Of a stretch of 64,000 nt of DNA, positions 7,207 through 38,879 are shown piece after piece. Position 1 is the first letter of the stretch. Each line of letters begins with the position of its first letter. Below the pieces are notes generated by a model, which saw only the letters and a program-made list of their open reading frames with translations, did no database searches and was not told where the DNA came from. Made by a program: the position numbers and the translations under genes. The DNA is from Clostridia bacterium. GTDB taxonomy: Bacteria > Bacillota > Clostridia > Christensenellales > CAG-314. The stretch lies in NCBI GenBank assembly GCA_017457305.1, contig JAFTHP010000044.1:53700-117699 (forward strand). Reading direction: 5' to 3'.

Positions 7207-7369
7207 ACAAATCTCCTTGCGTTAATACAGTGTACACCACGTTGCCTGTAGCAATATGGCGCAATTTGCCTAATTGTGATTATTGTTGCTGTAATTATAC
7301 CACACTTTTTTATGATATATCAACAGGTTGATTAATCTTTTTATTTTTTCTAACATTAAGCAAAAAGCA

Positions 7370-7397
7370 TTGACACCCCCCCCCATTTTGATATACT
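7370..7397 (+). promoter_or_regulatory. Sigma-70-type promoter with a C9 homopolymer in the spacer
   Basis: TTGACA (7370-7375), 16-nt spacer beginning with CCCCCCCCC (7376-7384), TATACT (7392-7397). Lies about 100 nt upstream of the 7496 gene. Confidence 0.55.
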
Positions 7398-7495
7398 ATA
7401 TTTGTTACACTGTAAAAATGTTATAAAGAAAAGATAATACAACTTACGTTACACTTTTTACAAAACATTTTTACTACTTATTTGGAGGTAATTTT

Positions 7496-8947
7496 ATGAC
7501 AAAAACAATAGCACTGATTCTTGCTGCTGTACTACTTGTTGGCGGCGGTGTTACAGTTGGTGTGGTTATCAATAATAACAATAACCTACCACAAAACGTT
7601 GCTAAAGATGCAATTTTGAGTCTTGCCGACGTGGTTAAAAGAACGGAAATTGCTCCCCTATACAAAACGATAACAGGCGGATCCATCCAAATGTCACAAA
7701 CGTTTATAACGGAAGACGGCATTACCAGTTCAGTAAACAATAGCGCCAAAATTTACTTTGCCAAGGATAAATTTGTAGCACAAAACGTAAGCTTATCCGA
7801 AATGCTTCCCATCCAAGGAGATTTGTGGATAGAAGATGACTTTATTTACGTAAAAGAACAAAACTTTTTGGGTGGTGCTTACGCCTTGGAAAAGGGAAAA
7901 CTAGCTGATCAATTTGAAAAATCTATTTTTGCATACGGTTCACAATCCAAATACGCACTGGATAACGAAGACAAACACGATGACATTGTAAAACTCCTTT
8001 CCTACGTTGACAGCCTTAGCACCAGCACTATGGAAAAAGATATGCAAAAGATTAGTTACAGCTACCTAAAGGAATTGTGGAATATCTTTTGCGAAGAAGT
8101 TTCATTTGAATCCCAAACGAAAATGGTAAAAATTGACAGCAATGACGTCAAAGCACGTAGCATAAAAATTACAATCAATGCCAACGATATTTGCGACATT
8201 TGGGAAAGGATACTTCAATTCTTACGCGAAGATGAACAAGTTGTAAACTTCCTAGAGAAACACGAGGACCTAATCGATATCGCCAACAATCCAATTTTCG
8301 GTTCGACCATAACGGTTGATAGAGACATTGCTAGCAAGTACATCCAACTGCTAGATCAACTGAACGAAAATATGGACGATACCTGCCAAGAAATACTAGA
8401 ACAATGGGAAAACAACAATCTTATCATTGATATTACCACCCCAACACACAGTTCAAAAATGCTAAAACTACGCGTATCTTACGGCTACGAAGACAAATTC
8501 ATTTTGGACTTTGGCAATAAAACCATTGAAAATGCGAACAAAATCACACTAAAAGATGGCGCCGGAAACGAATATGTTTACCAAGTTGTCAACGGTGACC
8601 AAACACTACTACTAACCTACTCAGAAAACGGCGAAAGACTATTCTCCTTCAACTACGACAGAGAAAGCACCCAATATACACTAACAACTGTAGACCAATC
8701 CAAATTTACAACCACAAGTAAAGGCACAATTGTACAGGGCAAAGACATCACAATGACAGTCAACGAAGTAATCCACGACTCAGCAATTTACGATAGCGAT
8801 GACTGCAGCTACACAATGGACTTGACCTTTATCCTAAAGACAAATGACAAACTCCCACAAAAGCCCAACGATTACAAGACACTTGCTACCATCACCGAAG
8901 AAGATATAGACAACCTTTTGGGTGGCACGTCACAAATGCCAGAGTAA
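7496..8947 (+). CDS. Hypothetical membrane-anchored extracytoplasmic protein
   Basis: 483 aa. N-terminal TM IALILAAVLLVGGGVTVGVVI; GGAGG SD upstream. I recognise no family. Confidence 0.6.
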   Translation: MTKTIALILAAVLLVGGGVTVGVVINNNNNLPQNVAKDAILSLADVVKRTEIAPLYKTITGGSIQMSQTFITEDGITSSVNNSAKIYFAKDKFVAQNVSLSEMLPIQGDLWIEDDFIYVKEQNFLGGAYALEKGKLADQFEKSIFAYGSQSKYALDNEDKHDDIVKLLSYVDSLSTSTMEKDMQKISYSYLKELWNIFCEEVSFESQTKMVKIDSNDVKARSIKITINANDICDIWERILQFLREDEQVVNFLEKHEDLIDIANNPIFGSTITVDRDIASKYIQLLDQLNENMDDTCQEILEQWENNNLIIDITTPTHSSKMLKLRVSYGYEDKFILDFGNKTIENANKITLKDGAGNEYVYQVVNGDQTLLLTYSENGERLFSFNYDRESTQYTLTTVDQSKFTTTSKGTIVQGKDITMTVNEVIHDSAIYDSDDCSYTMDLTFILKTNDKLPQKPNDYKTLATITEEDIDNLLGGTSQMPE

Positions 8948-8972
8948 ACTATCACAACCTTAACATCAAAGC

Positions 8973-9003
8973 AAAAAACCTTGGAACAAATTCCAAGGTT
9001 TTT
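8973..9003. terminator. Bidirectional terminator hairpin, copy 1 of a 3-copy identical hairpin
   Basis: AAAAACCTTGGAACAAATTCCAAGGTTTTT. The same sequence recurs at about 10745 and 10951. Confidence 0.75.
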
Positions 9004-9045
9004 ATTTTTCACACTAATATTGCTTAACAGTACAATATTGACCAC

Positions 9046-9450
9046 TTAAAACTCGTATCTTGTTCCGTTGGCAAAAAGCACGCCATCCGTTAGCTTTATC
9101 TGCAAGATGATGGTGTTTGGATCATCTTCATTGGTGTGACCATTATCGTACCAGGCAGCAAAGGCTTGACGCAACATATCCGCAATTTGCTTGTTTTGTG
9201 GCAATTTTATGTGCCCAAGACTTTGACAAATGGCATGCCCCGAAAACCACTCGCCGCTTATTGCCGCAACAGGATTTTGTTGCAAATGTTGCATCTTGTT
9301 GGACAATGCGTGCGTGATAGTAAAAAAGCTATCTTGCCAAAACACTGCATCAATCGTCCTAACCCAAGGAGTACCACTTGAGTCCACAGTTGCAAGTGCC
9401 ATCAACGAGTCTTTGCCAAATCTTTCTTTCAAAATTTCAATATGTTTCAT
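9046..9450 (-). CDS. Pyridoxamine 5'-phosphate oxidase-like (FMN-binding split-barrel) family protein
   Basis: 134 aa. The pattern LMALATVDSSGTPWVRTIDAV...FFTITHALSNKMQHLQQNPVAAI is typical of the general-stress-26/PNPOx-like family. Confidence 0.65.
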   Translation of the reverse strand: MKHIEILKERFGKDSLMALATVDSSGTPWVRTIDAVFWQDSFFTITHALSNKMQHLQQNPVAAISGEWFSGHAICQSLGHIKLPQNKQIADMLRQAFAAWYDNGHTNEDDPNTIILQIKLTDGVLFANGTRYEF

Positions 9451-9481
9451 AAGTTTACTCCATTGTTAGCAAGCAATCGCC

Positions 9482-10114
9482 CTAAATATCCCCAAATCCA
9501 CGGCAAAGGATATCTTCCCATGCCTGTTGATCAATTTGTTCGTCTTTGAACAACTTGCGTTTGTCTTCTTGTGTAATTTTCCTTAGCACCCTGCACGGGT
9601 TACCTACAGCAACGCACCAATCGAGGATGTCCTTTGTAACGACACTGCCTGCACCAATCACAACGTTGTTGCCAATATGCACACCAGGGCAAATCACGCT
9701 GTTACCACCTATCCAAACGTTATTTCCAATGGTGATTTCCTTGCCGTACTCGTACCCGGAGTTGCGCGTTGATGGATAAATTGGGTGTCCAGCTGTAAAA
9801 ATAGACACATTAGGCGCAAGCTGACAATTATCCCCAATTGTAACCTTTGCCACATCCAATATTGTACAGTTGTAGTTTGCAATAAAGTTTTTTCCAACCT
9901 TAATGTGAGAGCCATAGTCACAGTAAAAAGGTGGGTTAATAAAAGCATCATCTACACCCAACAACTCCTTTACAACCTTGGCAATACCTGCAAAATCACT
10001 CCTATCCATAAAATTGAGCTTTTGCAAAATCTTTCTACATCTAATTTGCTCGGCAAAAACTTCACTGTCGGAAATATACGCCAATCCTTTATCCCTACGC
10101 TCAATATTGTTCAT
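9482..10114 (-). CDS. maa: Maltose/galactoside O-acetyltransferase (hexapeptide-repeat)
   Basis: N-terminal Mac-type region (ERRDKGLAYISD...RKILQKLN) followed by left-handed beta-helix hexapeptide repeats (IGDNCQLAPNVSI, IGNNVWIGGNSVI, IGNNVVIGAGSVV). Start at ATG 10114 with a GGAG SD. Confidence 0.8.
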   Translation of the reverse strand: MNNIERRDKGLAYISDSEVFAEQIRCRKILQKLNFMDRSDFAGIAKVVKELLGVDDAFINPPFYCDYGSHIKVGKNFIANYNCTILDVAKVTIGDNCQLAPNVSIFTAGHPIYPSTRNSGYEYGKEITIGNNVWIGGNSVICPGVHIGNNVVIGAGSVVTKDILDWCVAVGNPCRVLRKITQEDKRKLFKDEQIDQQAWEDILCRGFGDI

Positions 10115-10251
10115 ATGCACATCTCCACATATATTGATTACTTTTTGTAGTTAATCACCACAACTACCTAACACTACTAACTGTAAATAGCTTGGTGGTC
10201 GATTTCTTCCTGTAATACTTGATCTTGCACCTTTCGTTTTCGCCGAAAGTA

Positions 10252-10659
10252 TCAATTGCGTTCTTCAAAGGGACGATTAAATGAACCTATCTCAATAAGG
10301 TTGCCTTCTGGATCGGCAACATAGCAGGTGCGCTGTCCCCAAGGCTCTGTTGTGGGTTGCATAACAGGTGTAGCACCTTTACCAACTATGCGATGATACT
10401 CCCTGTCTACCTGTTCAAAGGTGTCAACATACAAAGCAATTTCGAAGTGTCCGTTGATGCCCTGTGTGTATTGATAACTTTTGCTGGTCATTTTTTCAAA
10501 GTTTTTGCGTTCGTAAAGCATAAAGAGCGTGCCATCTTTTATTAGATACACGTTTTGTGCATTTTCCCCTTCGGTAATTTCAAATCCCATAACGTCACGA
10601 TAAAAACGCACCATTGTGGGCATATCCTTTACCAACAATCCAAAACCATCCAATTTCAT
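10252..10659 (-). CDS. VOC/glyoxalase-bleomycin-resistance family protein
   Basis: 135 aa, MKLDGFGLLVKDMPTMVRFYRDVMGFEI...DPEGNLIEI. GGAGGG SD. Confidence 0.75.
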   Translation of the reverse strand: MKLDGFGLLVKDMPTMVRFYRDVMGFEITEGENAQNVYLIKDGTLFMLYERKNFEKMTSKSYQYTQGINGHFEIALYVDTFEQVDREYHRIVGKGATPVMQPTTEPWGQRTCYVADPEGNLIEIGSFNRPFEERN

Positions 10660-10737
10660 AGCAAACAGTCCCTCCTAACACTAATTACATCTTTAACATA
10701 TATTATATACTCAAAATATCTGTAAGTAAAGCCCTAA

Positions 10738-10830
10738 AATAACAAAAAACCTTGGAACAAATTCCAAGGTTTTTGTATTTGTAAAAATGATTTGTGTAGG
10801 CTCTCCAAGAAATTATCTCTTGCTGAATTG
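10738..10830. repeat. 93-bp direct repeat, copy A (orphan copy of the rpsI 3' end plus terminator)
   Basis: Differs at 1 position from 10944-11036. Contains the last 18 nt of rpsI, including its stop, and the CCTTGG..CCAAGG hairpin. Confidence 0.9.
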
Positions 10831-10943
10831 AACATAGTTTAGAAACAAAAACTAATATGTTTGTAGCTTTCCATCTTCTTGATGCCACAATAAGTCAATC
10901 AAGTGTTATTTTGCTACCAAGTTTTTGTTTGGTAATGCTCCAC

Positions 10944-11036
10944 AATAACAAAAAACCTTGGAACAAATTCCAAGGTTTTTGTATTTGTAAAAATGATTTG
11001 TGTAGGCTCTTCAAGAAATTATCTCTTGCTGAATTG
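10944..11036. repeat. 93-bp direct repeat, copy B (authentic rpsI 3' end plus terminator)
   Basis: Overlaps the real rpsI stop (11019-11021). The hairpin serves as the rpsI terminator. Confidence 0.9.
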
Positions 11037-25339: not shown

Positions 25340-25370
25340 AAAAAAAGAGCAGAACTAAGGTGCTCTGCAA
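25340..25370 (-). terminator. Terminator at the left border of the element (downstream of the serine recombinase)
   Basis: Minus strand reads CAGAGCAccttagttcTGCTCTTTTTTT. Confidence 0.6.
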
Positions 25371-25429
25371 TAAGGGTTGCCTTGGCTCAAAAGAAATGCG
25401 TAGTCGCAATTACTGTGGCTACGCTTTTT

Positions 25430-27266
<1,837 letters not shown>

Positions 27267-27325
27267 ATACGTACCTCCGTTTTTTTGGTATCATATATAT
27301 CACTCTAAACGGAAATAATATCAAG

Positions 27326-27499
27326 TCATTTTGCGCGGTATTTTGTGTCTATTTTGATACTTTTTGCGTTTGTAAGAATAAGGTCTTTTATCTTGTCTTT
27401 TATGACCTTTTTTGCGTTTTCATCGGTGGCGATTGACTCAACGATATAGAGAGTCCCACCGATTTCTTTATATGTAATTACTGTATTCTGACTATCCAT
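27326..27499 (-). CDS. TnpW-like small transposon protein (57 aa)
   Basis: Below the ORF-track cutoff. MDSQNTVITYKEIGGTLYIVESIATDENAKKVIKDKIKDLILTNAKSIKIDTKYRAK resembles, from memory, the short TnpW proteins of Tn4451-like elements. AAGAGG SD. Confidence 0.5.
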   Translation of the reverse strand: MDSQNTVITYKEIGGTLYIVESIATDENAKKVIKDKIKDLILTNAKSIKIDTKYRAK

Positions 27500-27743
27500 A
27501 TCGAACCTCTTTACCCCTTAAAGGGGAGCGGTTAAACTCCCCAGAAAGGGCTGAAATTTGCCTTGTGTTGCCTTTTGTTTTTATGCTTGACTAGTAATCC
27601 CACTCGCCCGATGTCTTTCAAAACTTTGCATCTGCGCCCCGGTGGGGGTATCTAAATCTCTACAGGATTATTATTTAACAGCGGGCGTGGGGTGTCACGC
27701 ACAAAAAGCGGAATTCAAAAGGGTAATTACCCCCTATTAAAAA

Positions 27744-28682
27744 TTAGCCGATTTTAAGCACTTTCACTGCATCCGGGCGGATAAGCTTGCCGTCCAAATG
27801 TTCGACGCCAACATATCCACGGTACGAAGAGTTTATGTACTTTTCATACAGACGGCGTATAGCAAAAGGTGTGCGCTCCGTAATCCAATAGAAACTAAAA
27901 TCGCCAAATGCAATAGGCTTTGCGCCGCTTTTAATGTCGGGCATTGCATTGCAAATGATAACCTTTTTGCCTAATAGCTTGTCCGATGATGGATGCCACA
28001 GGTAATTTCCGTTAGAATCCTTCAAGGTACGAAGCGTAAATGCCGTTGTATCGTTCATAACCCATACGGCTTTATCTCTCAATTTAGGCTCTACCGAATG
28101 GAATAACTCAATAACCTCATCAAAGGTTATGTTGCTTGAATTGCTTGTTTTACCGATTTCGGCTCCGCCATTATCTGCAAGAATACCTACAGGCTGATTT
28201 ACACCGTTGCCGTTAACAAATGCATTTACCTCGGCTTTTCCAAAACGCTGCGCATACTTTTTAAGAAGCCAACTTTCAAAGTCAAAACCGTGGTCGGCTA
28301 AAAGGTCAATGTGAATTTTAGCGATAGAGGTTAACTTGTGACTACCAAACTTGTAATTGCCGAGAATTTCCTCGTCTTCAGGAATTTTAGCGTTTTCTTC
28401 TACCCACGCGGGTTCAGCATCGGTAGCAAGCATATGCACGGCATAATCGCTTTCATACATAGGAATAACCGTACCGAGAGAACGGAAGAAATTTTCCTTC
28501 TTTAATTCTTCGGTATAGCTATTTGCCTGAGCGGCAGGAAGAATGTGTGCGCTACTATCATTGAGTTTTACATTTTCTTCTTGCGTATTAAAGTTCTGAT
28601 GCTTACGAAGAGCATTCCAAAACTCCTTTTCATAAGCACTGTTGATAGGGTTAATAAATCTTCGATTTGTGTTGTTCATCAT
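27744..28682 (-). CDS. HK97-fold major-capsid-like protein, short form without an evident delta/scaffold domain
   Basis: 312 aa. ...LPAAQANSYTEELKKENFFRSLGTVIPM...GVNQPVGIL...AVWVMNDTTAFTLRTLKDSNGNYLW...FGDFSFYWITER fits the HK97-family MCP (TIGR01554-like) pattern. Confidence 0.75.
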   Translation of the reverse strand: MMNNTNRRFINPINSAYEKEFWNALRKHQNFNTQEENVKLNDSSAHILPAAQANSYTEELKKENFFRSLGTVIPMYESDYAVHMLATDAEPAWVEENAKIPEDEEILGNYKFGSHKLTSIAKIHIDLLADHGFDFESWLLKKYAQRFGKAEVNAFVNGNGVNQPVGILADNGGAEIGKTSNSSNITFDEVIELFHSVEPKLRDKAVWVMNDTTAFTLRTLKDSNGNYLWHPSSDKLLGKKVIICNAMPDIKSGAKPIAFGDFSFYWITERTPFAIRRLYEKYINSSYRGYVGVEHLDGKLIRPDAVKVLKIG

Positions 28683-28969
28683 TAATTGTCTCCTTTTCTT
28701 GTGTAATAATCTTTTTTGATGCGTTCTGCATCTTTATCGGTAATGCGTTCGTATGCCACACTGACCTCAAGCATTTTTTCTAAAGAGCCATAATAGTTGT
28801 GATTGTCCATATACTGAACGCAAAAATTACTGTTTGTTCCCATAGTTCTGGGAGCAAGGAATACTACGGCGTGGTCGTTCTTTTGGGGAATGACCTCAAG
28901 AATCTCGAATGCCGTAAAATCAACGTGTGCATCACGAAGATAATAGTTTAATTTTTTATCAAATTTCAT
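28682..28969 (-). CDS. Hypothetical protein, translationally coupled to the capsid-like gene
   Basis: 95 aa with an AAGGAG SD. Its stop overlaps the capsid-like start (TAATG). Confidence 0.5.
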   Translation of the reverse strand: MKFDKKLNYYLRDAHVDFTAFEILEVIPQKNDHAVVFLAPRTMGTNSNFCVQYMDNHNYYGSLEKMLEVSVAYERITDKDAERIKKDYYTRKGDN

Positions 28970-29031
28970 TTCTTAAATCTCCTTTATTTTTATTTGATAA
29001 TTTTTAATTTGAGCAATGCCCGGTACAAACT

Positions 29032-29100
29032 TCAACATCCGCCGGGACCGTTTACTACATAATTGCTGGCACTATCAATAGTAGGACTACGGATATGCAT
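29032..29100 (-). CDS. Candidate 22-aa peptide MHIRSPTIDSASNYVVNGPGGC
   Basis: ATG 29100 is preceded by AGGAGGTG at 7-nt spacing. First ORF of the peptide/95-aa/capsid-like string. No homology support. Confidence 0.3.
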   Translation of the reverse strand: MHIRSPTIDSASNYVVNGPGGC

Positions 29101-29233
29101 CTTTTCTCACCTCCTATATATTTCATCAAAAGTGACGGTAATGATAGTCGTATACATAACTCTTCTTTAGATTAAAAATTTTCGCTTATACATAAGTTAG
29201 TAAAGAGAGTACCACCCACCGTCACTTTGGTGC

Positions 29234-31504
29234 TTAATCGTCCACGAATAGCTCATCAAATGGCAACGGCTTAATACTGATGCCATAAACGAAACTACCT
29301 TTATTAGTTTTATGCCTACGGAAACCTGCTAAATCGAGTGCCGCATAAAAGTCCGTAGTGCTCCTAGCATATTCGCCGTTGCTAAGGCAATAATCACGGT
29401 AAGTTTTATACAGCTCACCGCTAGGTGCTTTATCGCTGGGAGTCTTATTGCAGCAATCGTCAAGGAAATGATTTAGCCAATGGTTGTTTTCTTTGTAGGT
29501 ATCCATAGCCTCTTGGACGCATTTAGGTGGGGTAAGCATGTATTTTTCTCGGATAATCATTTCTGCACCTTCAATAATCCATTTAAGACACGCACCGCCA
29601 CAATGCTTGAAAAGATAATCGGCATAGTTTTTTATGTCCTTCGCCCCCTCAATTTTTGCCTTAAATGGAATGACTATCAACCTGCGCCAAATGCCATCAT
29701 CGGTTGCGCCTACTTTGGGTAGGTGGTTTGTGTAAAGGACAAGCGTATGGCTGGGTTGGAACTTAAACGGTGCTTTATATTTCTTTTCTGCGTAAATATC
29801 GTCCGTAGACGCAAGCTGCTTGACGGTTGAGGTATTGAGCCTTTGACCTTCCTCAAGCTCTGCCGCAATCAATAGGCGTTTTCCTTTGGTTTCTGCTAGC
29901 TCAGGCTTGACATTTCGTTTGCAACCCACGGTTAAGGTATCCGCCGAGATTGCGCCGCTATATGTACCTAGTACCCGTGATATTAGATTCCAAAAGGTAG
30001 ATTTGCCGTTTCTGCCGTCTCCATAGGCAATAATGATGGCTTCGTGATAAACCTTGCCGATTGCAGCCAACCCCACAATGCGTTGAACATAATCGATAAG
30101 CTCGGTGTTACCTGAAAAGGTGGTATTAAGGGTTTCTTGCCATAATTCTTCGCCTTCGTCACTTGGGGATACGCTTGTAATTTTTGTAATAAAATCGTCT
30201 TGATTATGTTTTGCCCCGCCTAGCATACCTAACCTCAAATCGTATGTGGCATTAGGGGTATTCAGTAAGAAAGGATTGGCATCTAGCTCGTTGGGGTTTA
30301 TAAGGAGCATAGGTCTTACCTCTCGTAGCGTTGATGTGATATTTTTTGACTCTCGTCTTTTCATAACGAATGACAAATATGCCTTTGCCGCCTGATATTC
30401 TTGATACGCCTCGGTTTGCTCATCATTGAAAATATCCTGCGCCTTATTTGCTGATGTAGTTGCGAGTATTGTTTCCGCACCTGTATTACTAAGCCGTTCT
30501 CTAGTTTCCTTAACCCTTCGCTCGGCATCGACAAGTTGCCTGAAAGTTAAGCGTTGAGCCAAGCCTTGAGCATGGGGATTGGATTCCTCCCATATCTTGC
30601 CCGTGAAAACAAGGAAGTTCGTAGCCTCGGCATAGCGTAAAATGTGTTCGTACTCTCGTTTCAAAAGGGTGGCTTGTCCTACGTCCGTGAAATCGTCAGG
30701 CTCAAGGGATTGCTCGCTATTATAGTCTTTCGGTGGGATATAATCGGGTGACAGTGATACCTTCCTAAAAAAGTTCTGCGCACTCCGCCAAATGGTATGC
30801 AATTCCTGCACTGACAATGGTGGTACGCAGGTATCGGCTTTCTTCATAAATTCTTGGAAGGCGATATCCGTATCCCCATACCGTTTGATGATTTTGCCTG
30901 CGTATTTAGAGAGCGTGGAATTCCGCTTGCCTTCGGGGATAATTTCCTCAATGGGTTGAGAAAGCTCTATTGTAGACTCCTTATCCCATAGAAACTCCGA
31001 TAAAAGCGTGTTGCCATCGAAGATTTCTACTTGGGGATTTTCCGTACCAAAGAAGAACCTGCCTGCGTCCAAAGCATTTTTATCGACATAGGGATAAATG
31101 CTATAAACCTGCTCTTTTAGCCTACGGCACTCGTCTGCGTTTGTGATTTCCGACGTTTGAAACAAAATATGAAATTTCGGTCTTGCTGCCTTGTTGCCTT
31201 TTTCTTTCATATGATTGCGAGAATAATGCACTAAAAACGGCACACCCTTAAAAAACTCGGCTACCTTTTTAGGGGTTATCCACTCGCCGGGGTTATCCGT
31301 GTGGTCATTATCGATATCAAAAGGTAAGCAATTCGTAGCGATAAAATTGTTGATGTTGCGATAGTTATTTTTATACCTGGCGCATACATAATCGGTTGAT
31401 AAGGCTGTGCGGGCGGTCTCAATATCCGTTATCGTATCCTCATAGGGATACGAGCAGTTTTTAGGGTTGTTTGTTGTGTTTGAGGAAAATATAGTCAAGT
31501 TCAT
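29234..31504 (-). CDS. Primase / P4-D5-type SF3 helicase (phage/plasmid primase family)
   Basis: 756 aa. N-terminal primase-like region (LPFDIDNDH...PKFHILF); C-terminal Walker A YGDGRNGKSTF and the conserved ...LYTNHLPKVGATDDGIWRRLIVIPF block. Confidence 0.8.
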   Translation of the reverse strand: MNLTIFSSNTTNNPKNCSYPYEDTITDIETARTALSTDYVCARYKNNYRNINNFIATNCLPFDIDNDHTDNPGEWITPKKVAEFFKGVPFLVHYSRNHMKEKGNKAARPKFHILFQTSEITNADECRRLKEQVYSIYPYVDKNALDAGRFFFGTENPQVEIFDGNTLLSEFLWDKESTIELSQPIEEIIPEGKRNSTLSKYAGKIIKRYGDTDIAFQEFMKKADTCVPPLSVQELHTIWRSAQNFFRKVSLSPDYIPPKDYNSEQSLEPDDFTDVGQATLLKREYEHILRYAEATNFLVFTGKIWEESNPHAQGLAQRLTFRQLVDAERRVKETRERLSNTGAETILATTSANKAQDIFNDEQTEAYQEYQAAKAYLSFVMKRRESKNITSTLREVRPMLLINPNELDANPFLLNTPNATYDLRLGMLGGAKHNQDDFITKITSVSPSDEGEELWQETLNTTFSGNTELIDYVQRIVGLAAIGKVYHEAIIIAYGDGRNGKSTFWNLISRVLGTYSGAISADTLTVGCKRNVKPELAETKGKRLLIAAELEEGQRLNTSTVKQLASTDDIYAEKKYKAPFKFQPSHTLVLYTNHLPKVGATDDGIWRRLIVIPFKAKIEGAKDIKNYADYLFKHCGGACLKWIIEGAEMIIREKYMLTPPKCVQEAMDTYKENNHWLNHFLDDCCNKTPSDKAPSGELYKTYRDYCLSNGEYARSTTDFYAALDLAGFRRHKTNKGSFVYGISIKPLPFDELFVDD

Positions 31505-31807
31505 AAATCGTGCTCCTTTCGTTGTTTTTTCTTGTCCTCTCGTTATACGGAGAAAAGTCGAGGTGTTTTCAAGGGGTGTTTTTGAAAAAAAGTTGAAAAA
31601 ATTTTATTTTTTTCGTCACGACCATCACCTTTATAGGCAAAATAAAGAATATGCGTATTGACAAAATAAAAAAATCCCCTGAATACAGGGGAAAAGATAC
31701 GAAAGTTATCAATTAATAACTGGATATAAATTTCGTTTTATGGTAATGTGTCAAGTACAAAAAATGCATGTTTTTGGGTAAAATTATATAAAAAAGGAGT
31801 TTTACTT

Positions 31808-32740
31808 ATGAAAACAACAGAATTGTTATTTGAATGGCTTGAAAATTACGAAAAAGACCGAGTGAAGCCTCGTACCTATAGCCGATACCGAAGTCTGATA
31901 GACCTTCATCTAGTACCTGCGCTGGGGGATATTGATATAGAAAATCTTTCCAGACGCCAAATACAAGAATTTTTATCGCAAAAGAAAAAAGACGGTAACA
32001 TGCGTAGTGGCGAAACAATGTCCTCTGCCAGCACTAACTTGATGCTTACCGTCTTAAATATGGCTTTTGAATATGGTGTGGATATGGAAATTTGCGATAA
32101 TAATCCATGTCTGCGCTTAAAACGCTGCCCCGATGATTGTCGTAAGGTAGAGGCTTTTACCATTGAGGAGCAACGCAAAATTGAGTGCTATATTGAGTCT
32201 AGCGAGGACAGACGCCTCTTTGGTATTATTTTAGGGCTATATTCAGGCTTACGCATAGGTGAACTTATAGGCTTGGAGTGGGATGATATAGACCTTGAAA
32301 AAGGCATTATAAAAATAGATAAAACCGTGTATCGAGACAAAGACGATGACGGCACTTGGCAAGTATGCGTAGACAAGCCTAAAACAAAATCGTCAGAGCG
32401 CATAATTCCGTTACCATCCTATATTGTGGAACAGTTAATAGAATATAAGACTTCGGCAAGGAGCAATTTTGTTGTAGAAAATAAAAAAGGCGAACGGATG
32501 TCCATTCGCTCATACCAATTTATGTTTGAAAGATTAACCGAAAAGGCGGGGGTGCGTAAACTTAACTTCCACGCCTTGCGCCATACATTTGCTACTCGTG
32601 CTATCGAGTGTGGTATGGATATTAAAACGCTATCTGAAATTATGGGGCATAAAAATGCATCGGTTACGCTCAATCGTTATGCTCACAGTATGATGGATAC
32701 GAAAATAGCCATGATGAATAGGCTGCAACGTGTTTTTTAG
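31808..32740 (+). CDS. Tyrosine recombinase / site-specific integrase
   Basis: 311 aa from ATG 31808 (AAGGAG SD). SAM-like N-terminal domain; catalytic region SGLRIGELIGLEW...HALRHTFATRAI...GHKNASVTLNRYAH (R..HxxR..H..Y). Confidence 0.9.
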   Translation: MKTTELLFEWLENYEKDRVKPRTYSRYRSLIDLHLVPALGDIDIENLSRRQIQEFLSQKKKDGNMRSGETMSSASTNLMLTVLNMAFEYGVDMEICDNNPCLRLKRCPDDCRKVEAFTIEEQRKIECYIESSEDRRLFGIILGLYSGLRIGELIGLEWDDIDLEKGIIKIDKTVYRDKDDDGTWQVCVDKPKTKSSERIIPLPSYIVEQLIEYKTSARSNFVVENKKGERMSIRSYQFMFERLTEKAGVRKLNFHALRHTFATRAIECGMDIKTLSEIMGHKNASVTLNRYAHSMMDTKIAMMNRLQRVF

Positions 32741-32755
32741 CGCAAAACTGCATTG

Positions 32756-32779
32756 ATTATAACATTCGATGCAGTAAAA
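32756..32779. repeat. Left arm of an imperfect inverted repeat flanking the promoter of the restriction-like operon
   Basis: ATTATAACATTCG (32756-32768) is the reverse complement, 12 of 13 nt, of 32922-32934. Weaker similarity continues inward for about 10 nt. Confidence 0.5.
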
Positions 32780-32865
32780 CCGTAAAAAAGGGCAAAAAAA
32801 TAGGCATAAACTCAAAAAACTTTGAATTCATGCCTTTATTTGTGGCTTTCTACAGGACATTGGGG

Positions 32866-32894
32866 TTGCAAAATCCGATAAAAAGTGATATAAT
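32866..32894 (+). promoter_or_regulatory. Sigma-70-type promoter facing the restriction-like operon
   Basis: TTGCAA (32866-32871), 17-nt spacer, TATAAT (32889-32894). A second TATAAT lies at 32902-32907. Confidence 0.6.
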
Positions 32895-32910
32895 TAATGA
32901 GTATAATGAA

Positions 32911-32934
32911 ATTTTATGTACCGAATGTTATATT
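32911..32934. repeat. Right arm of the imperfect inverted repeat
   Basis: CGAATGTTATATT (32922-32934). Also part of a local hairpin CCGAAT-gttat-ATTCGG. Confidence 0.5.
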
Positions 32935-32954
32935 CGGCGCAGGGAAGGTATCCT

Positions 32955-33953
32955 ATGGCTGACATCATAACAAAAGATATAGATATTTTGGAAGACGGGT
33001 TGCTTTATTGTTACCCTGATATTCTAAAAATTCTGTTAAAAGATAAAACCACTGGTAAAAACATTTTGTGGGCAACAAAAGATTATGAACGCAATGGCGA
33101 AGGCTTTGAAGAATACGCAGAAATACAAATGTACTGCATTACAGGGCTTTTCGCAACGGAAATCCAACCCCGCGCAACAAAACCAAAAGAAATACAAACG
33201 ATGCGTATTAAGACAAAAGCGGAAGTTTTTACCCCTTGTTGGATTTGCAATGAACAAAACAACTTGATTGATGATGCTTGGTTTGGTCGCAAAAATGTCT
33301 TTAATACCCCTTACGGACAATCATGGGTAACGACATCAGACCCTATTGTCTTTGATGATACAAGAACATGGAAACAATATGTGGACTCAAAAAGGCTAGA
33401 AATAACCTGTGGTGAGGCTCCGTATTTAGTCAGCCGTTATGACGCAGCGTCAGGCGCCTACTTACCTGTGTTGCAAAGAATCGGATTGCTGGATAGGAAA
33501 CTGCGTGTCGTATGTGAAAATTGCAACGATGAAAACGAATGGTACAAATGGGCAATTCGTGCCTTCCAAAGCGTATACGGATACGAGTTTCAGGGGGATA
33601 GCCTATTAATCGCCAGAGAAAACCTTTTTTATACCTTCATTGATTATTACAAATATAAGTTTGGCACAGCGCCGTCTTTAGACAAATTAAAAAAGATAGC
33701 CAATATTATCAGCTGGAATATTTGGCAAATGGACGGATTGACTTGTACTGTTCCATATTCTTGCCATTCCGTTGAGGTGCGAGATAGACAGGCATCGTTA
33801 TTTGATGACGGCACTGTGGAGTGCAAACCTTGTCCTGGCTGTGAAAAAAACGATATGTTTTCCCATAACGGGATTTATTGCAAAATCAAAGATTGGAGAG
33901 ATAATTCGCCTTTACTATACGTCTCAATACTTCAAAGGAGGAAAAGCAAATGA
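32955..33953 (+). CDS. Methyltransferase-like protein lacking a recognisable NPPY/DPPY motif (partner of the fusion enzyme)
   Basis: ORF-track numbering: motif-X-like AEVFTP (aa 102-107), motif-I-like LEITCGEAPYL (161-171), motif II/III-like YGYEFQGDSLLIARENL (221-237), C-terminal Cys cluster CKPCPGC. No (D/N/S)PP(Y/F/W) seen. Start probably ATG 32955 (MADII...). Stop overlaps the next start (ATGA). Confidence 0.55.
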   Translation: MADIITKDIDILEDGLLYCYPDILKILLKDKTTGKNILWATKDYERNGEGFEEYAEIQMYCITGLFATEIQPRATKPKEIQTMRIKTKAEVFTPCWICNEQNNLIDDAWFGRKNVFNTPYGQSWVTTSDPIVFDDTRTWKQYVDSKRLEITCGEAPYLVSRYDAASGAYLPVLQRIGLLDRKLRVVCENCNDENEWYKWAIRAFQSVYGYEFQGDSLLIARENLFYTFIDYYKYKFGTAPSLDKLKKIANIISWNIWQMDGLTCTVPYSCHSVEVRDRQASLFDDGTVECKPCPGCEKNDMFSHNGIYCKIKDWRDNSPLLYVSILQRRKSK

Positions 33954-36900
33954 TGCTCTATAAGCCTACTGCAAATTATAAGCTTATTTATGTATATACC
34001 ATACATGACGAAAAGCATAACGGCAAACTAAAAGTCGGTACTGCAAGTCTATCATCAATCAAAAGTGAAAAGCAATTACCTCCTAATTGCCCCGAGCTGT
34101 TAGCTGCGGCAAAGCGTAGAATTGATGAGCAAACAAAAACGGCAATGGTAGATTATGAAATTCTACATACGGAATTGTCTATTCGCCATATAACTTTGGC
34201 TGATGGAACAGATCATGCCGCCATTTTTGAAGACCACGATATTCACGAAGTTTTGAAAGAGTCTGGGTATGCCCCTCTTGTATTTAGGGATAGCGGCAAG
34301 GACAGTGAGTGGTTTACTCTTACGCTGGATGTAATATTGGATGCTATTAATGCTTATAAAATGGGTTATAGCATGATACCTCCTAAATCGGTTACCACTC
34401 CTGTTAGTGCAGGACAATCCCCCAAAAGTAAAACAAAAATTAAGTTAAGAACGGAACAGGCTGATAACATCGCAAAGACCATTAGCATTTTCAAAAATAA
34501 TGATACTATGCTTTGGGATTGTAAAATGCGTTATGGTAAAACGGTTACTGCATACGAACTCGTCAGACAAATGGGGTTAAAGCGTGTTATTGTTGTAACG
34601 CATAGACCAGCCGTTGAAGATAGCTGGGATACCGACCACGATTTAATTTTTGAAGGTACAAATCATAGATTTATTGATAAAACCAAAGATGCCCTTGACG
34701 GCTATGATGAAATAAAAGATTCTAAAAACGATAAGATTTTGTCAGACCTTATCCGTTTTGACACGCCTTTTATTTATTTTGCCTCTATGCAGGATTTGCG
34801 CGGTTCTACTCGTGTCGGTGGTAATTACAATAAAAATAATGGCGTTTTCGATTTAGACTGGGAAATGATTATCATTGACGAGGCACACGAAGGCGTACAA
34901 ACCGACTTGGGTGAGGCGGTAATCGCAGAACTGCGAAAGAAAGGCACTAAAATTTTATCTTTAACAGGCACTGCGTATGGTCTTCGCAAGGATTATGGAG
35001 ACAATGTGTTTACCTGGACTTATGTTGATGAGCAAAGAGCTAAGCAACAATGGGCAGAGTTACACCCGAACGAGAAAAATCCGTATGCTGACCTGCCTAC
35101 GATGAATATCCTAACCTTTGACTTGGGTGATGCCATAGAAAATTCCTATCGTTACGTAACCGAGGACTCCGCCTTTAACTTTAGAGAATTTTTCCGCACT
35201 TGGACGGGAGATATCGAAACCGACTTCTATCCCGTGCCCGCAGATAAGTCCATTGGTGATTTCGTCCATGAAGATGCAGTATGGTCTTTCTTAAACCTTA
35301 TTACTTCAGACAACGAAAGCACAAACTATCCATTTTCAAAACCTGAGTATGTGGATATGTTTAAGCACACCTTTTGGATTGTCCCCGGTGTAAAAGAGGC
35401 GCATGCACTCCGCGAATTGTTGAGAGCGCATCCATTTTTCAAAAAATACCGAATTGTTGACGTCGCAGGTGATGGTGACCAGGAAGAACGCTATGACCTG
35501 GCTTTAAGTAAGGTTAGAAAGGCAATTAAAGAAAACGATAAAACAATTACCATTTCGTGCGGAAGGTTGACAACGGGCATCACCGTCAAAGAATGGACGG
35601 CTGTTATGATGCTTTCGGGTTCTTCCAAAACATCCGTAAATGGTTATATGCAGGCTATTTTCAGAGTGCAATCGCCCGGTGTTATAGATGGTAAGCAAAA
35701 AGAAAATTGCTATGTTTTCGATTTTGCACCCGATAGAGCTTTGCAGGTTATTGCCGACGTACATAAACTCTCGTCTAGGAGCAAAAAAGGCGAAGAAGGC
35801 GAAAGACAAGCATTGGGTGAATTTTTGAATTTCTGCCCTGTTATCGCAGTAGAAGGAACGGAAATGCATTATTATGACGTTCCCGATTTAATGCGCCAAA
35901 TCAAGCGTATTTCCGTTGAAAGTGCCATTAATAGCGGTTTTGACGATAATACCATTTATCTTTCCGATGCAGGACTCTCACGCTCTGATTACGATTTGGA
36001 GATTTTGAGAAGGCTTAGCGATGTTGTCGCACCGAAAAAGAAAGGCAACAAAGATAAATCGGTTGAAATTGCTGGCAACGGTCTTACTAATGAAGAACGC
36101 AAAAAAATTGAGCGCGCCAAGAAGAAACCTAAGCGTGAACTGACGGATGAAGAAAAAGCCCTGCTTGAAAAAGAACGTGCCGAGAAGAAAGAACAACAAA
36201 AATTGTTTGATTTGCTCCGTGCCGTTTCTATCCGTTTGCCATTGCTCTTCTACGGGGCGGATGCCGATATTACCGAAATAATAAAGCTAAAGGATTTTGT
36301 AGACATTGTCGATGATGAATCTTGGGAAGAATTTATGCCCAAAGGCTTACGCAAGGAGCTTTTCCTCGATATTTCAAGATATTATGATGAGGACGTTCTT
36401 GTAGGCGCAGGCTTGCGTATTAGAAAACTTGCAAAAGCAGCCGATGAATATCCGCCTACTGTAAGAGCGACTAAAATTGTAGAAATTTTAAGCAAATTCA
36501 AAAATCCCGACAAGGAAACCGTTTTGACACCATGGCGTGTTGTAAATATGCATATGTCAGAAACTCTCGGTGGATATTGTTTCTTTGATGATGCTTTTGT
36601 TAAAGAAATTGAGGAGCCGAGGTTTGTTGAGCACGGTGATATAACCGCCGATATATTGCTTAATACCGACGTGCGTATTTTAGAACTCAATTCTAAATCA
36701 GGCTTGTATCCTTTGTATATGGCATATAGCATATACAATTTCCTGTTAAGCGGGTCAGAAATAAGCCACTCCTTTGAGGATTTGCAAAAATTGTGGGAAT
36801 CCGTATTAAATGATAATATTTTCGTGCTCTGCAAAACCAAAATGGCTCGTAGCATCACAATTAGGACGCTTGCAGGCTACACGGGAATGAAGGTCAATGC

Positions 36901-38035
36901 CATTTACCTGACTAAACTTTTGGAAAGAATGGAAGACAGAGATAGATTGGCTCGCAAATTAACAAACCCCGAAACATGGGGAAAGGTAGGTGAAAGAATG
37001 AAGTTTGATGCAGTTGTAGGAAATCCGCCATATCAAGGCAATAACCATCAGCAAATTTATCCAAACTTTTACTTAACGGCTATAAAGGCTGGAAAATATG
37101 CGACCTTGATTTTCCCCACAGGATGGCAACAACCTAAAAATGCTAATAATTTAAGCAAATTAAATAATGAGGAAGTCAAGGCTGATAGACAAATTGTTTT
37201 TATCGATAATAAGCAAAATGTCTTCCCTGGTATTACTGGTGCTGAATGGGTAAATATTATTCTTTGGCAAAATGGGTATGATAACGGCTTGGGTGGCAGC
37301 CAAATGATTTATACTAATGGGGTGGAGCCTGTTGTTAAAGCATTGTTATGGAATAAGGAAGAAATCGAAAAACCAACCCCAATTATTGCATTAGAAACTT
37401 TGGTTCTTGAAACTGATGGCTTTGAACCGTTATCTAATTACACATCTTCTTTAAAACCATATGGGTTAAGGACGGATTTCCTAGATAATCCGCAAAAATA
37501 TAATTTACCAGACGTTCAAACTAGCAAGGAAAAAATGTCGGATATTGTATTATATGGTCTTGAAAATAGAAAACAAGTTGTTAGATATTTACCGTTTGAT
37601 TATCCTTTGCCTAAAAAGACACTAGCATTCAATTGTTATAAGGTATTTGTAGGAAAGGCTTGGGGCAATTTTTCTGCAGGATATTTAGGAGGAGCGTATG
37701 CAGATATCATTGTAGCTGCACCTAATGAAATTTGTACCGAGAACTTTTTAGAAAGTGGATTCTTTGCCGATGTAGAAAAAGCAAAAAAACACGCTAAATA
37801 TCTTATGACGCGCTTTGTAAGAGCTTTGTTATTTGCTAAGAAAAACTCTCAAGATAATTCAAAAGAAAAATGGATATCTGTCCCTGTGCAAGATTATTCA
37901 GAAGATTGGTGGGATTTATCCATCGATGAAATTGAAGAGCATCTTTTTGACAAGTATTCTATTCCAGAGGATGTTAGAATTTTTGTAAGAGAAAATATCC
38001 AAAAACGTGATGAAAGTAATATAAGAAACATTTAG
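33950..38035 (+). CDS. Fusion protein: T5orf172/GIY-YIG-like nuclease domain - SF2 (DEAH) helicase - gamma-class N6-adenine DNA methyltransferase with C-terminal recognition-like domain
   Basis: 1361 aa. aa 10-130: IYVYT..KLKVGTAS..KRRIDEQ..SEWF (T5orf172/GIY-YIG-like). Walker A MRYGKT (193-198), IIIDEAHEG (307-315), LSLTGTA (336-342), motif VI QAIFRVQSP (568-576). Lys/Glu-rich linker (695-750). MTase motif X TVLTPWRVVNMH (857-868), motif I-like ILELNSKSGLYPL (910-922), motif IV VVGNPPYQ (1022-1029). AAAGGAGG SD. Confidence 0.8.
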   Translation: MMLYKPTANYKLIYVYTIHDEKHNGKLKVGTASLSSIKSEKQLPPNCPELLAAAKRRIDEQTKTAMVDYEILHTELSIRHITLADGTDHAAIFEDHDIHEVLKESGYAPLVFRDSGKDSEWFTLTLDVILDAINAYKMGYSMIPPKSVTTPVSAGQSPKSKTKIKLRTEQADNIAKTISIFKNNDTMLWDCKMRYGKTVTAYELVRQMGLKRVIVVTHRPAVEDSWDTDHDLIFEGTNHRFIDKTKDALDGYDEIKDSKNDKILSDLIRFDTPFIYFASMQDLRGSTRVGGNYNKNNGVFDLDWEMIIIDEAHEGVQTDLGEAVIAELRKKGTKILSLTGTAYGLRKDYGDNVFTWTYVDEQRAKQQWAELHPNEKNPYADLPTMNILTFDLGDAIENSYRYVTEDSAFNFREFFRTWTGDIETDFYPVPADKSIGDFVHEDAVWSFLNLITSDNESTNYPFSKPEYVDMFKHTFWIVPGVKEAHALRELLRAHPFFKKYRIVDVAGDGDQEERYDLALSKVRKAIKENDKTITISCGRLTTGITVKEWTAVMMLSGSSKTSVNGYMQAIFRVQSPGVIDGKQKENCYVFDFAPDRALQVIADVHKLSSRSKKGEEGERQALGEFLNFCPVIAVEGTEMHYYDVPDLMRQIKRISVESAINSGFDDNTIYLSDAGLSRSDYDLEILRRLSDVVAPKKKGNKDKSVEIAGNGLTNEERKKIERAKKKPKRELTDEEKALLEKERAEKKEQQKLFDLLRAVSIRLPLLFYGADADITEIIKLKDFVDIVDDESWEEFMPKGLRKELFLDISRYYDEDVLVGAGLRIRKLAKAADEYPPTVRATKIVEILSKFKNPDKETVLTPWRVVNMHMSETLGGYCFFDDAFVKEIEEPRFVEHGDITADILLNTDVRILELNSKSGLYPLYMAYSIYNFLLSGSEISHSFEDLQKLWESVLNDNIFVLCKTKMARSITIRTLAGYTGMKVNAIYLTKLLERMEDRDRLARKLTNPETWGKVGERMKFDAVVGNPPYQGNNHQQIYPNFYLTAIKAGKYATLIFPTGWQQPKNANNLSKLNNEEVKADRQIVFIDNKQNVFPGITGAEWVNIILWQNGYDNGLGGSQMIYTNGVEPVVKALLWNKEEIEKPTPIIALETLVLETDGFEPLSNYTSSLKPYGLRTDFLDNPQKYNLPDVQTSKEKMSDIVLYGLENRKQVVRYLPFDYPLPKKTLAFNCYKVFVGKAWGNFSAGYLGGAYADIIVAAPNEICTENFLESGFFADVEKAKKHAKYLMTRFVRALLFAKKNSQDNSKEKWISVPVQDYSEDWWDLSIDEIEEHLFDKYSIPEDVRIFVRENIQKRDESNIRNI

Positions 38036-38063
38036 TATTGAAAAAAAGTCGATAAAACCCAAA

Positions 38064-38103
38064 GCCACACCTGTGAGCCTTAAAACTCTAGGTGTGGTTT
38101 TTT
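38064..38103 (+). terminator. Terminator after the fusion gene
   Basis: CCACACCT (38065-38072) / AGGTGTGG (38090-38097), then T-run. A diverged copy lies at 38747-38790. Confidence 0.7.
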
Positions 38104-38109
38104 CAAAAA

Positions 38110-38118
38110 TGGTATAAT
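38110..38118 (+). promoter_or_regulatory. Extended -10 promoter element
   Basis: TGGTATAAT (TGnTATAAT), about 30 nt upstream of ATG 38149. Confidence 0.5.
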
Positions 38119-38148
38119 GGTAGTGAAATTATTATATTGGAGGGGCAA

Positions 38149-38733
38149 ATGTTATCTAAAAATCAAAAAGACGAAATTATAAAAATGTATGCCGAGCTTA
38201 TTTCTACGCAAGACAGCGGGTATGAAAGGCTGAAAGCCCTAGAAAAACTGCGAGATTCCTTTGCCTCTTTAATACCTGATTGGAGTAAATTAATATCAGA
38301 GTATGCAATACAACACGGTCTTACAAGCGTATTATCAACGATTGCATTGTTAGAAAGTAAACCTGAGGATAAGCCCGAAGAAGCGCAAAGAGATATCATA
38401 GACGCAGGTGTTGCCCGAAAATGCAAATACGGCTTTTACACAACAAAAACGGACGAGCAAATCGATGCCGACATACAAGACCTAAATAATCGCATAATTT
38501 CTTATACAACAATAATGACTGTGGTAGATGAAATGTACGACAGAGAAATAATTACGCTTGAAGATTATTACAAGGCACAGGAATTAATGGGCGACAAATA
38601 TGGTATAACGCAAAAAAGTCTATTTTGGTGGAACGGCCCGCGCAAAATCGAACATAAGCCACGCAAACCATTAAAACCCGCTAGACCTTACATAAAACGA
38701 GATACGGAATATTGGGATAAATATAAAAAGTAA
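38149..38733 (+). CDS. Hypothetical protein, last gene of the element
   Basis: 195 aa from ATG 38149 (GGAGGGG SD). Basic, proline-rich C-terminus HKPRKPLKPARPYIKRD. No family recognised. Confidence 0.55.
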   Translation: MLSKNQKDEIIKMYAELISTQDSGYERLKALEKLRDSFASLIPDWSKLISEYAIQHGLTSVLSTIALLESKPEDKPEEAQRDIIDAGVARKCKYGFYTTKTDEQIDADIQDLNNRIISYTTIMTVVDEMYDREIITLEDYYKAQELMGDKYGITQKSLFWWNGPRKIEHKPRKPLKPARPYIKRDTEYWDKYKK

Positions 38734-38879
38734 ACATTAACAAAAAAGCCACACCCTTGAGCTTATAACTCTTGGATGTGGTTTCTTTGTTTTGAGCCGC
38801 CTTTTAGACCGTTTTTAGAAAATCCCTAATTAAACAGCCCAAAATCTGCTCTTTTTTTTAATATATAGTTGAATATAAA

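Follow-up and report, generated by a model that had tools for sequence, protein, structure and literature searches.

The 64,000-nucleotide stretch of DNA analyzed here (hereafter the window), from contig JAFTHP010000044.1 of a Clostridia bacterium of the CAG-314 lineage, carries a short intergenic segment between a tyrosine recombinase gene and an operon of restriction-modification-like genes, and this segment is very probably a genuine promoter inversion switch (inverton) driven by a recombinase. A preliminary description of the same DNA had proposed an inverton at this place; the proposal is now supported by the architecture of the recombination sites, the co-variation of their spacers, the occurrence of both orientations among related loci, and the intact catalytic residues of the recombinase.

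In the proposed mechanism, the adjacent tyrosine recombinase would bind two 27-nt sites, and strand exchange inside their spacers would flip a segment of ~161 nt, because the spacers lie in inverted orientation. In the ON state, which is the state of the window, transcription would proceed from ~32901 through the right site and a ribosome-binding site (RBS) into the genes of a methyltransferase and a Type IIG-like enzyme (32955-38035). In the OFF state, the promoter would fire antisense into the 3' end of the recombinase gene, while a terminator carried by the segment would now face that gene and halt read-through, which would leave the operon silent in a tight OFF state. The junctions predicted for the inverted (OFF) form are TATAACATTCGGTACATAAAATTTC and GGTTTTACTGCATCGAATGTTATA, with CTGCATTGATTATAACATTCG joined to GTACATAAAATTTC and GGTTTTACTGCAT joined to CGAATGTTATATTCGG.

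Composition of the recombination sites

The inverted repeat reported earlier, ATTATAACATTCG (32756-32768) and CGAATGTTATATT (32922-32934), is present and matches at 12 of 13 positions, as had been counted. A repeat finder extends the arms to 31 nt with 74% complementarity (32748-32778 and 32912-32942), and no inverted repeat ranks above this pair, whether in the local 700 nt or in the surrounding 14.5 kb. Of 3000 first-order Markov randomizations of the 215-nt intergenic region alone, 1.8% contain a core as good as the exact 11-nt one or better; judged within that region alone, the core match is suggestive, in agreement with the earlier estimate that a chance origin was unlikely but not negligible.

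The functional arms are not the 13-nt repeats but 27-nt composite sites, each consisting of two inverted 10-nt half-sites around a 7-nt spacer (10-7-10). The left site (32748-32774, plus strand) is composed of the outer half-site CTGCATTGAT (32748-32757), the spacer TATAACA (32758-32764), and the inner half-site TTCGATGCAG (32765-32774). The right site (32916-32942, plus strand) is composed of the inner half-site ATGTACCGAA (32916-32925), the spacer TGTTATA (32926-32932), which is the exact reverse complement of the left spacer, and the outer half-site TTCGGCGCAG (32933-32942). The similarity beyond 13 nt that had been noticed before is real, although it belongs to these composite sites, the left of which starts at 32748; likewise, the segment does adjoin the recombinase stop codon, but at a distance of 7 nt rather than 5 nt. 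Both arms are palindromic internally (CTGCAT..ATGCAG and CCGAAT..ATTCGG), and they look like hairpins because each is a two-half-site recombination site, not an RNA hairpin. Of the local-hairpin alternative raised in the preliminary description, the internal palindromes therefore stand and the hairpin role does not.

At simple tyrosine-recombinase core sites, such as those of Cre/loxP, FLP/FRT, and Xer/dif, strands are exchanged across a short asymmetric spacer that matches in both partners. The two predicted sites of the window share this form, with inverted half-sites, an asymmetric spacer within the 6-8-bp range, and identical spacers in the two partners; moreover, they enclose a short segment as an inverted pair. 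The family pattern YTGCRYYGAW-N7-WTCGRYRCAD, with up to two mismatches allowed, matches only these two sites within the entire window.

Conservation of the sites in homologous loci

Homologous loci (numbered with the prefix L) were initially gathered by a one-genome-per-species scan, yielding 31 loci with recombinase relatives 55-80% identical to that of the window, and by a viral-contig scan that added one locus (L032) with a recombinase 97% identical; the 24 complete loci served as the set for the first site analysis. Recombinase homologues with an E value of 1e-60 or better number 2,890. Each of the 24 complete loci has two 27-nt sites downstream of the recombinase gene, the first beginning +7 to +11 and the second +133 to +205 after the stop codon (+297 in the gap-containing scaffold L026), and the half-site consensus across the family is CTGCRYCGAA. 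Both arms are thus kept in homologous loci, a point on which the preliminary description had made its reading depend, and their 7-nt centers co-vary perfectly: the two spacers of a locus are exact reverse complements in 24 of 24 cases, with about 20 different spacers among the loci (e.g., TATAACA, TATCACA, TGATTAC, TATTCAC, TATGTAC, TGAACCA, TGGAGCA, and TATGAGA).

Several loci depart from the common layout. In L029 (6817-6875), the right site is tandemly duplicated, with both copies bearing the spacer CCATTCA and starting 32 nt apart; the resulting three-site layout would permit alternative inversions or a 32-nt deletion. In L028 (3650-3684), the right site keeps its spacer and outer half-site and has a degenerate inner half-site (TTGCCACTTG); this switch may be locked OFF ahead of its EcoRI-type methyltransferase gene. 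The metagenome-assembled genome JAZUBT01 carries two modules, L020 (ON) and L023 (OFF), with recombinases 89% identical, half-sites nearly identical, and spacers one base apart (TGATTAA vs. TGATTTA), both of which precede surface proteins with Listeria-Bacteroides repeats. By analogy with heterospecific lox sites, such an arrangement fits the idea that private spacers would stop paralogous switches from recombining with one another. Scans with the left-site 20-mer TGCATTGATTATAACATTCG returned only L033 from the metagenome collection and L032 from the viral one; the L033 match (1068-1087) was rejected as a chance 20-mer match inside an unrelated alanine-racemase-like coding region, and single-site pattern hits are therefore not diagnostic.

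The predicted promoter and terminator of the invertible segment

The invertible segment of the window (32765-32925) comprises the two inner half-sites and a 141-nt interior. The promoter previously recognized at 32866-32894 (plus strand) is confirmed, with the -35 element TTGCAA (32866-32871), a 17-nt spacer, and a -10 element that proves to be TG-extended (TGaTATAAT, 32886-32894); predicted from consensus only, it matches at 10 of 12 positions with the TG present, and it would start transcription near 32901. It faces the operon, which bears out the earlier assignment of the present orientation as ON, and we agree that upon inversion it would point into the 3' end of the recombinase gene.

What had not been described before is a predicted intrinsic terminator within the segment (32794-32835, minus strand), with a 15-bp stem (32802-32816 and 32821-32835) followed on the minus strand by T7 (32794-32800). 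Its RNA fold has a free energy of -20.2 kcal/mol (z = -5.2), and none of 200 shuffles folds equally well. The promoter, predicted to be strong and of the sigma-70 type, lies back-to-back with the terminator in antiparallel arrangement, and both presumably act as predicted. The predicted 5' untranslated region (5'-UTR) folds no better than its shuffles (z = -0.76), and a search of 31400-33400 against Rfam gave no match above chance; no claim of a regulatory RNA at the switch is made.

The same composition recurs in homologous loci. Their interiors measure 99-170 nt, and each possesses a single promoter close to the consensus (typically TTGAAA-17-TATAAT, in many cases TG-extended) near one end, together with a hairpin near the opposite end. 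On the strand antisense to the promoter, at least five T occur in the 9 nt past the hairpin in 19 of 23 loci, and the hairpin is therefore read as an intrinsic terminator opposed to the promoter. A promoter that faces the regulated gene in one orientation is thus predicted in the window and conserved in the homologous interiors.

Occurrence of both orientations

In the first set of loci, the promoter points toward the cargo genes (ON) in the window and in L005, L018, L020, L025, L029, and L032, and toward the recombinase gene (OFF) in about 20 others; across all loci and assemblies, the totals are ~11 ON and ~40 OFF. Interiors in the ON and OFF states align only after one of them is reverse-complemented, as found in all 11 pairs with a score of at least 40. 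The inner half-sites move with the segment, since the promoter-proximal one resembles ATGYACCGAA and the terminator-proximal one CTGCRTCGAA, whichever position they occupy.

The comparison closest to the window comes from P0001, a 90%-identity cluster representative that is 94% identical to the window recombinase and occurs on four contigs from four sequencing runs of one series. One of its loci, L036, agrees with the window in sites, spacer (TATAACA), and cargo and has the segment inverted (OFF). Its interior is identical to that of the window at 133 of 141 positions when reverse-complemented and at 71 of 153 in the same sense, while the flanks agree in the same sense (91% identity in the recombinase gene and 88% in 1 kb of cargo), and the inner half-sites are swapped exactly. 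A second case is found in the P0080 group, in which the recombinase protein is identical throughout: L046 and L050 are ON, and L044, L045, L047, L048, and L049 are OFF. Between L046 (ON) and L045 (OFF), the flanks are identical over 2459 of 2459 and 1327 of 1327 positions, and the interior is an exact reverse complement (130/130). A third lineage, P0110, likewise includes both states. The same locus therefore exists in both orientations across genomes, for the window lineage (window and L036) as well as for L046 and L045, which answers the question that the preliminary description had left to a comparison of related genomes.

The manner in which assemblies end is a further sign of mixed orientations. 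Three contigs (L035, L037, and L038) end at ...TATAACATTCG, where the sequence shared by their ON and OFF versions stops; L015 and L017 break off at ...TATGTACTTCG, again the last base shared by the two states, where an N-run begins in L014; and L052 and L053 end at ...TGGAGCATTC, the last ON/OFF-shared base of that locus. L004 and L058 probably also end at the last base shared by the orientations. A perfect repeat of only ~11 nt cannot branch an assembly graph with k of at least 31, and both junctions were therefore presumably present in the reads. Scaffold L026 (6946-7250) repeats the left site and part of the adjoining interior in inverted form over 124 nt across an N10 gap; here, the ON and OFF versions of a mixed population were probably merged during scaffolding.

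The adjacent tyrosine recombinase

The gene upstream of the segment (31808-32740, plus strand) encodes a 310-aa protein and was correctly recognized at the outset as a tyrosine recombinase, with matches to Pfam Phage_integrase (3e-31) and Phage_int_SAM_3 (3e-13). The protein, which is the presumed invertase, has a simple two-domain form: a SAM-like core-binding domain at the N terminus is joined to a catalytic domain, and an arm-binding domain is absent. No substitution of R149, K192, H255, R258, or Y291 occurs among 16 relatives, and the conservation of H281 reaches at least 90%; judging by the reading frame and these residues, the recombinase appears catalytically intact. Its closest solved structure is Tn1549 Int (6EN0, E 3e-20).

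The recombinase falls below the cut-off of every NCBIfam family. The FimB and FimE models (NF007371 and NF007370) score 37.1 and 26.7 bits against cut-offs of 222 and 221, the Xer models score 107.7 against 220 (XerA), 82.9 against 335 (XerC), and 80 against 330 (XerD), and the integron integrase model scores 51 bits against 265. An exact-sequence look-up of the window protein returned no match, and its relatives were reached through 90%-cluster representatives. In every locus, the recombinase gene lies directly upstream of the switch, even though the genes farther upstream and downstream differ. Because of this strict linkage, inversion is assigned to the adjacent tyrosine recombinase, which, given its intact catalytic residues as well, presumably does the flipping. 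Speculatively, antisense transcription in the OFF state might damp the recombinase and thereby bias the switch toward OFF, with which the excess of OFF loci is compatible.

Points against the switch and alternative explanations

Four points weigh against an active, recombinase-driven switch in the window. Only the ON state is seen there, so that switching in this particular genome is deduced from relatives; the left outer half-site (…TTGAT) differs from the family consensus (…TCGAA) at two positions; the link between recombinase and inversion is drawn from linkage and conserved residues; and five contigs (L001, L007, L008, L012, and L032), whose ends lie inside or just past the segment, miss the predicted branch point. 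These five end 92-125 nt into the interior, at positions for which a simple de Bruijn graph argument does not account, and are not counted as evidence; variable cargo or assembler behavior is a possible cause of such ends.

The first two of these points suggest that the switch, though real in the family, could be frozen ON in this genome by decay of a site or by a recombinase that is not expressed, and the closest ON relative, L032, is likewise ON. We consider this improbable. The recombinase reading frame and catalytic residues are intact, and both spacers are identical; furthermore, the departure of the outer-left half-site is not peculiar to the window, being present also in the P0004 group and in L036, which is in the other state, and three sister samples with contigs broken at the branch point carry these half-site variants too. 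The switch in this genome is accordingly expected to flip still, as far as comparison with its relatives can indicate.

Alternatively, the segment might be inverted by another enzyme, either the large serine recombinase of the island in which the switch resides or a master invertase of the host. RecV in C. difficile and Mpi in Bacteroides are master invertases of this kind. A scan against PHROGs matches the serine recombinase to a DNA invertase family, and the dependence on the adjacent enzyme is, as said, deduced; most switches of C. difficile are flipped by a distant master recombinase (PMC5903667). Inversion by such another enzyme is nevertheless very unlikely here, since all loci have the tyrosine recombinase gene directly upstream, whereas L032 is the only related locus that also contains the serine recombinase and further genes of the island. 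The form of the sites points the same way: tyrosine recombinases make staggered cuts 6-8 bp apart and serine enzymes use a 2-bp crossover, and the 10-7-10 arrangement suits the former.

A third explanation holds that the sites serve mainly for the capture or exchange of cassettes in the manner of an integron, with inversion as a side reaction. The cargo just downstream of the conserved right site is very diverse, the weak NCBIfam matches of the recombinase include the integron integrase and XerA, and the right site of L029 is duplicated in tandem. Against this, the score for the integron integrase is far below its cut-off, and the two sites are always inverted and always enclose the promoter and the terminator. 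Moreover, no third site bounds the cargo in the window, and a search of 388 kb of related loci yielded none except the L029 duplicate; cassette excision is therefore unsupported, and this explanation retains only a slim chance.

Lastly, the notion that the repeat arose by chance or represents two unrelated hairpins without any role in recombination (a recombinase terminator and a 5'-UTR hairpin), for which the P of ~0.02 for the core match in the window alone and the internal palindromes might speak, is refuted by the perfect co-variation of the spacers and by the inversions in L036 and between the 100% identical flanks of L046 and L045, quite apart from a 5'-UTR fold no better than shuffles and a left arm that lacks a T-run after it on the plus strand.

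The presumably switched operon and its host island

With the inversion switch as the preferred explanation, the genes placed under its control would be those of the downstream operon. An RBS (GGAAGG) abuts the right site and is followed by the ATG start codon (32943-32957, plus strand), an arrangement that is also found in L002, L006, L009, L018, L036, and L039; the operon thus starts at the ATG at 32955, not at 32916. Cargo gene 1 (32955-33953, plus strand) encodes a Type II DNA methyltransferase-like protein of 332 aa, which matches PADLOC MTase_II (PDLC03390) over its full length (E 2e-123) and has no match in Pfam or NCBIfam. Cargo gene 2 (33950-38035, plus strand) encodes a Type IIG-like protein of 1361 aa, in which a helicase/nuclease-type domain (Pfam ResIII, 4e-10) and an Eco57I-type methyltransferase domain (Pfam Eco57I, 4e-13) are fused; it also matches PADLOC REase_MTase_IIG (3e-30). 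The operon ends at a terminator, CCACACCT...AGGTGTGG followed by T6 (38066-38103, plus strand). A shufflon of hsdS specificity genes was considered and rejected, as the operon contains no hsdS or Type I gene and 33-39 kb harbors no long inverted repeats.

Downstream of the operon, a 43-nt terminator-like hairpin is repeated with 72% identity (38061-38103 and 38745-38787) on either side of a SHOCT-domain gene (38092-38733). This gene seems to have its own TG-extended -10 element (TGGTATAAT at ~38110) and is therefore probably outside the control of the switch.

The switch is carried by an island of ~13.5 kb (25340-38860 of the window) flanked by host-like genes, among them an amylase-family gene that begins at 38880. 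A perfect 14-nt inverted pair, AAAAAAAGAGCAGA and TCTGCTCTTTTTTT, is located at 25340-25353 and 38845-38858. The island genes include, all on the minus strand, the large serine recombinase (25430-27193), a major head protein (27744-28682), and a D5-type primase-helicase (29234-31504), so that the island looks like a phage-satellite-like integrative element with defense cargo. A megablast search of 31500-34000 against plasmids gave no match.

Diversity of the cargo and portability of the module

The genes that follow the switch in related loci vary widely. The gene pair of the window recurs in L010, L036, and L063-L066. Other restriction-modification cargo includes Type III-like genes (L002 and L030), MmeI/Eco57I-type methyltransferases with a T5orf172-ResIII protein (L006, L009, L011, L013, L019, L025, and L039-L041), and the EcoRI-type methyltransferase of L028. 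Surface proteins of the BspA-type leucine-rich-repeat, Listeria-Bacteroides-repeat, and Big_2 kinds are found in L018, L020, L021, L023, L029, L031, and L045, SPFH-zinc-ribbon proteins in L022, L027, and L056, and dynamin-like GTPases with weak similarity to LeoA/LeoBC in L024. In L016, a nonribosomal peptide synthetase of 1266 aa (C-A-T-TE; 7188-10988) stands directly behind an OFF-state switch, an unusual cargo for a phase-variation module.

The surroundings of the recombinase gene vary as well. The P0001 protein occurs in two upstream contexts: in L035, it is preceded by a D5 primase gene on the opposite strand, as in the window, and in L036 and L037, a same-strand open reading frame of 88-93 aa overlaps the start of the recombinase gene. 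An identical recombinase behind two contexts suggests that the module moves between contexts. Judging by the gene content of these loci, recombinase and switch form a portable module that is independent of the mobile element of the window.

Relationship to known invertible elements

Invertible promoters near tyrosine recombinases are well established, as in fimS, the gut invertons of the PhaseFinder type, and C. difficile (PMC5903667; PMC11892184). The switch of the window resembles the fimS/FimB-FimE system of E. coli in that a short invertible segment bears the operon promoter, the tyrosine recombinase is encoded directly upstream, and the recombinase could in turn be affected by the direction in which the switch lies. 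However, the recombinase lies outside the FimB/FimE family (37 bits vs. 222), and a segment of ~160 nt with one recombinase and an antiparallel terminator differs from the 314 bp and two recombinases of fimS. The repeats of fimS are of 9 bp with flanking binding sites, and its inversion depends on IHF and Lrp, whereas the sites of the window are of the full 10-7-10 form.

Cre-loxP and FLP-FRT are similar in that inverted half-sites flank a short asymmetric spacer, the orientation of the sites sets the outcome (inverted sites giving inversion), spacer identity is kept between partners, and different loci can have different, heterospecific spacers. They differ in dimension (13-8-13 compared with 10-7-10), have no close sequence relationship to the window recombinase, whose best solved relative is Tn1549 Int, and serve in plasmid or phage maintenance, while the natural role here would be gene regulation.

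The cwpV switch of C. difficile works via a terminator. Together with flgB and cmrRST, it belongs to the RecV switches, tyrosine-recombinase inversions that control surface proteins and other loci (PMC5903667). Compared by description only, the RecV system employs a distant master recombinase and several unrelated repeats, whereas each locus of the present family has its own adjacent recombinase and a segment that carries both promoter and terminator.

Inverton group 139 of the Clostridia, for which a survey from 2025 reports tight linkage to a neighboring group of tyrosine invertases (group 35; PMC11892184), may be likened, by description only, to the present family: these are intergenic invertons of gut Clostridia with an adjacent tyrosine recombinase gene, repeats of up to ~25 nt, a length of a few hundred nt, and surface proteins frequently encoded nearby. 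Invertons given in the survey include those of Clostridium sp. D5 (3525576-3525832) and Intestinimonas butyriciproducens DSM 26588 (1750639-1750893). The anatomy of half-sites and spacer, the private spacers, and the promoter-terminator pair are not described in that survey; more broadly, site anatomy, private spacers, promoter-terminator pairing, and portability among defense and surface genes were not found in the inverton literature examined.

Phase-variable restriction-modification is known from hsdS shufflons, or "epigenetic invertons" (PMC7672463). The hsdS shufflons and the phasevarions based on simple repeats likewise bring restriction-modification under reversible switching, either ON/OFF or in specificity, with an adjacent tyrosine recombinase. 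Unlike the hsdS shufflons, the system of the window has no hsdS or intragenic repeats; the whole operon would be switched transcriptionally and its specificity would not be shuffled.

Significance

Comparison of loci is by itself enough to divide the site into half-sites and spacer, and it reveals natural heterospecific spacers. For annotation, the pattern YTGCRYYGAW-N7-WTCGRYRCAD beside a recombinase of this kind predicts phase-variable genes in Clostridia; for assembly, switch loci of this family break contigs; and for synthetic biology, orthogonal recombinase/site pairs might be drawn from the family.

A broader reading, for and against which the balance is roughly even, is that the recombinase, two heterospecific lox-like sites, and the promoter/terminator segment constitute a self-contained, portable phase-variation cassette that has spread to very many loci of gut Clostridia, where it places arbitrary cargo under ON/OFF control, each copy keeping a private spacer, and renders the defense cargo phase-variable in the present case. 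If so, the private 7-nt spacers would let several near-identical recombinases per genome flip their own switches without rearranging the chromosome. In the window, a costly restriction-modification operon on a small island that encodes a capsid protein and a primase would come under heritable ON/OFF control, the antiparallel terminator paired with the promoter would keep the OFF state tight, and the cells of one population would differ in their phage resistance, DNA uptake, and methylome.

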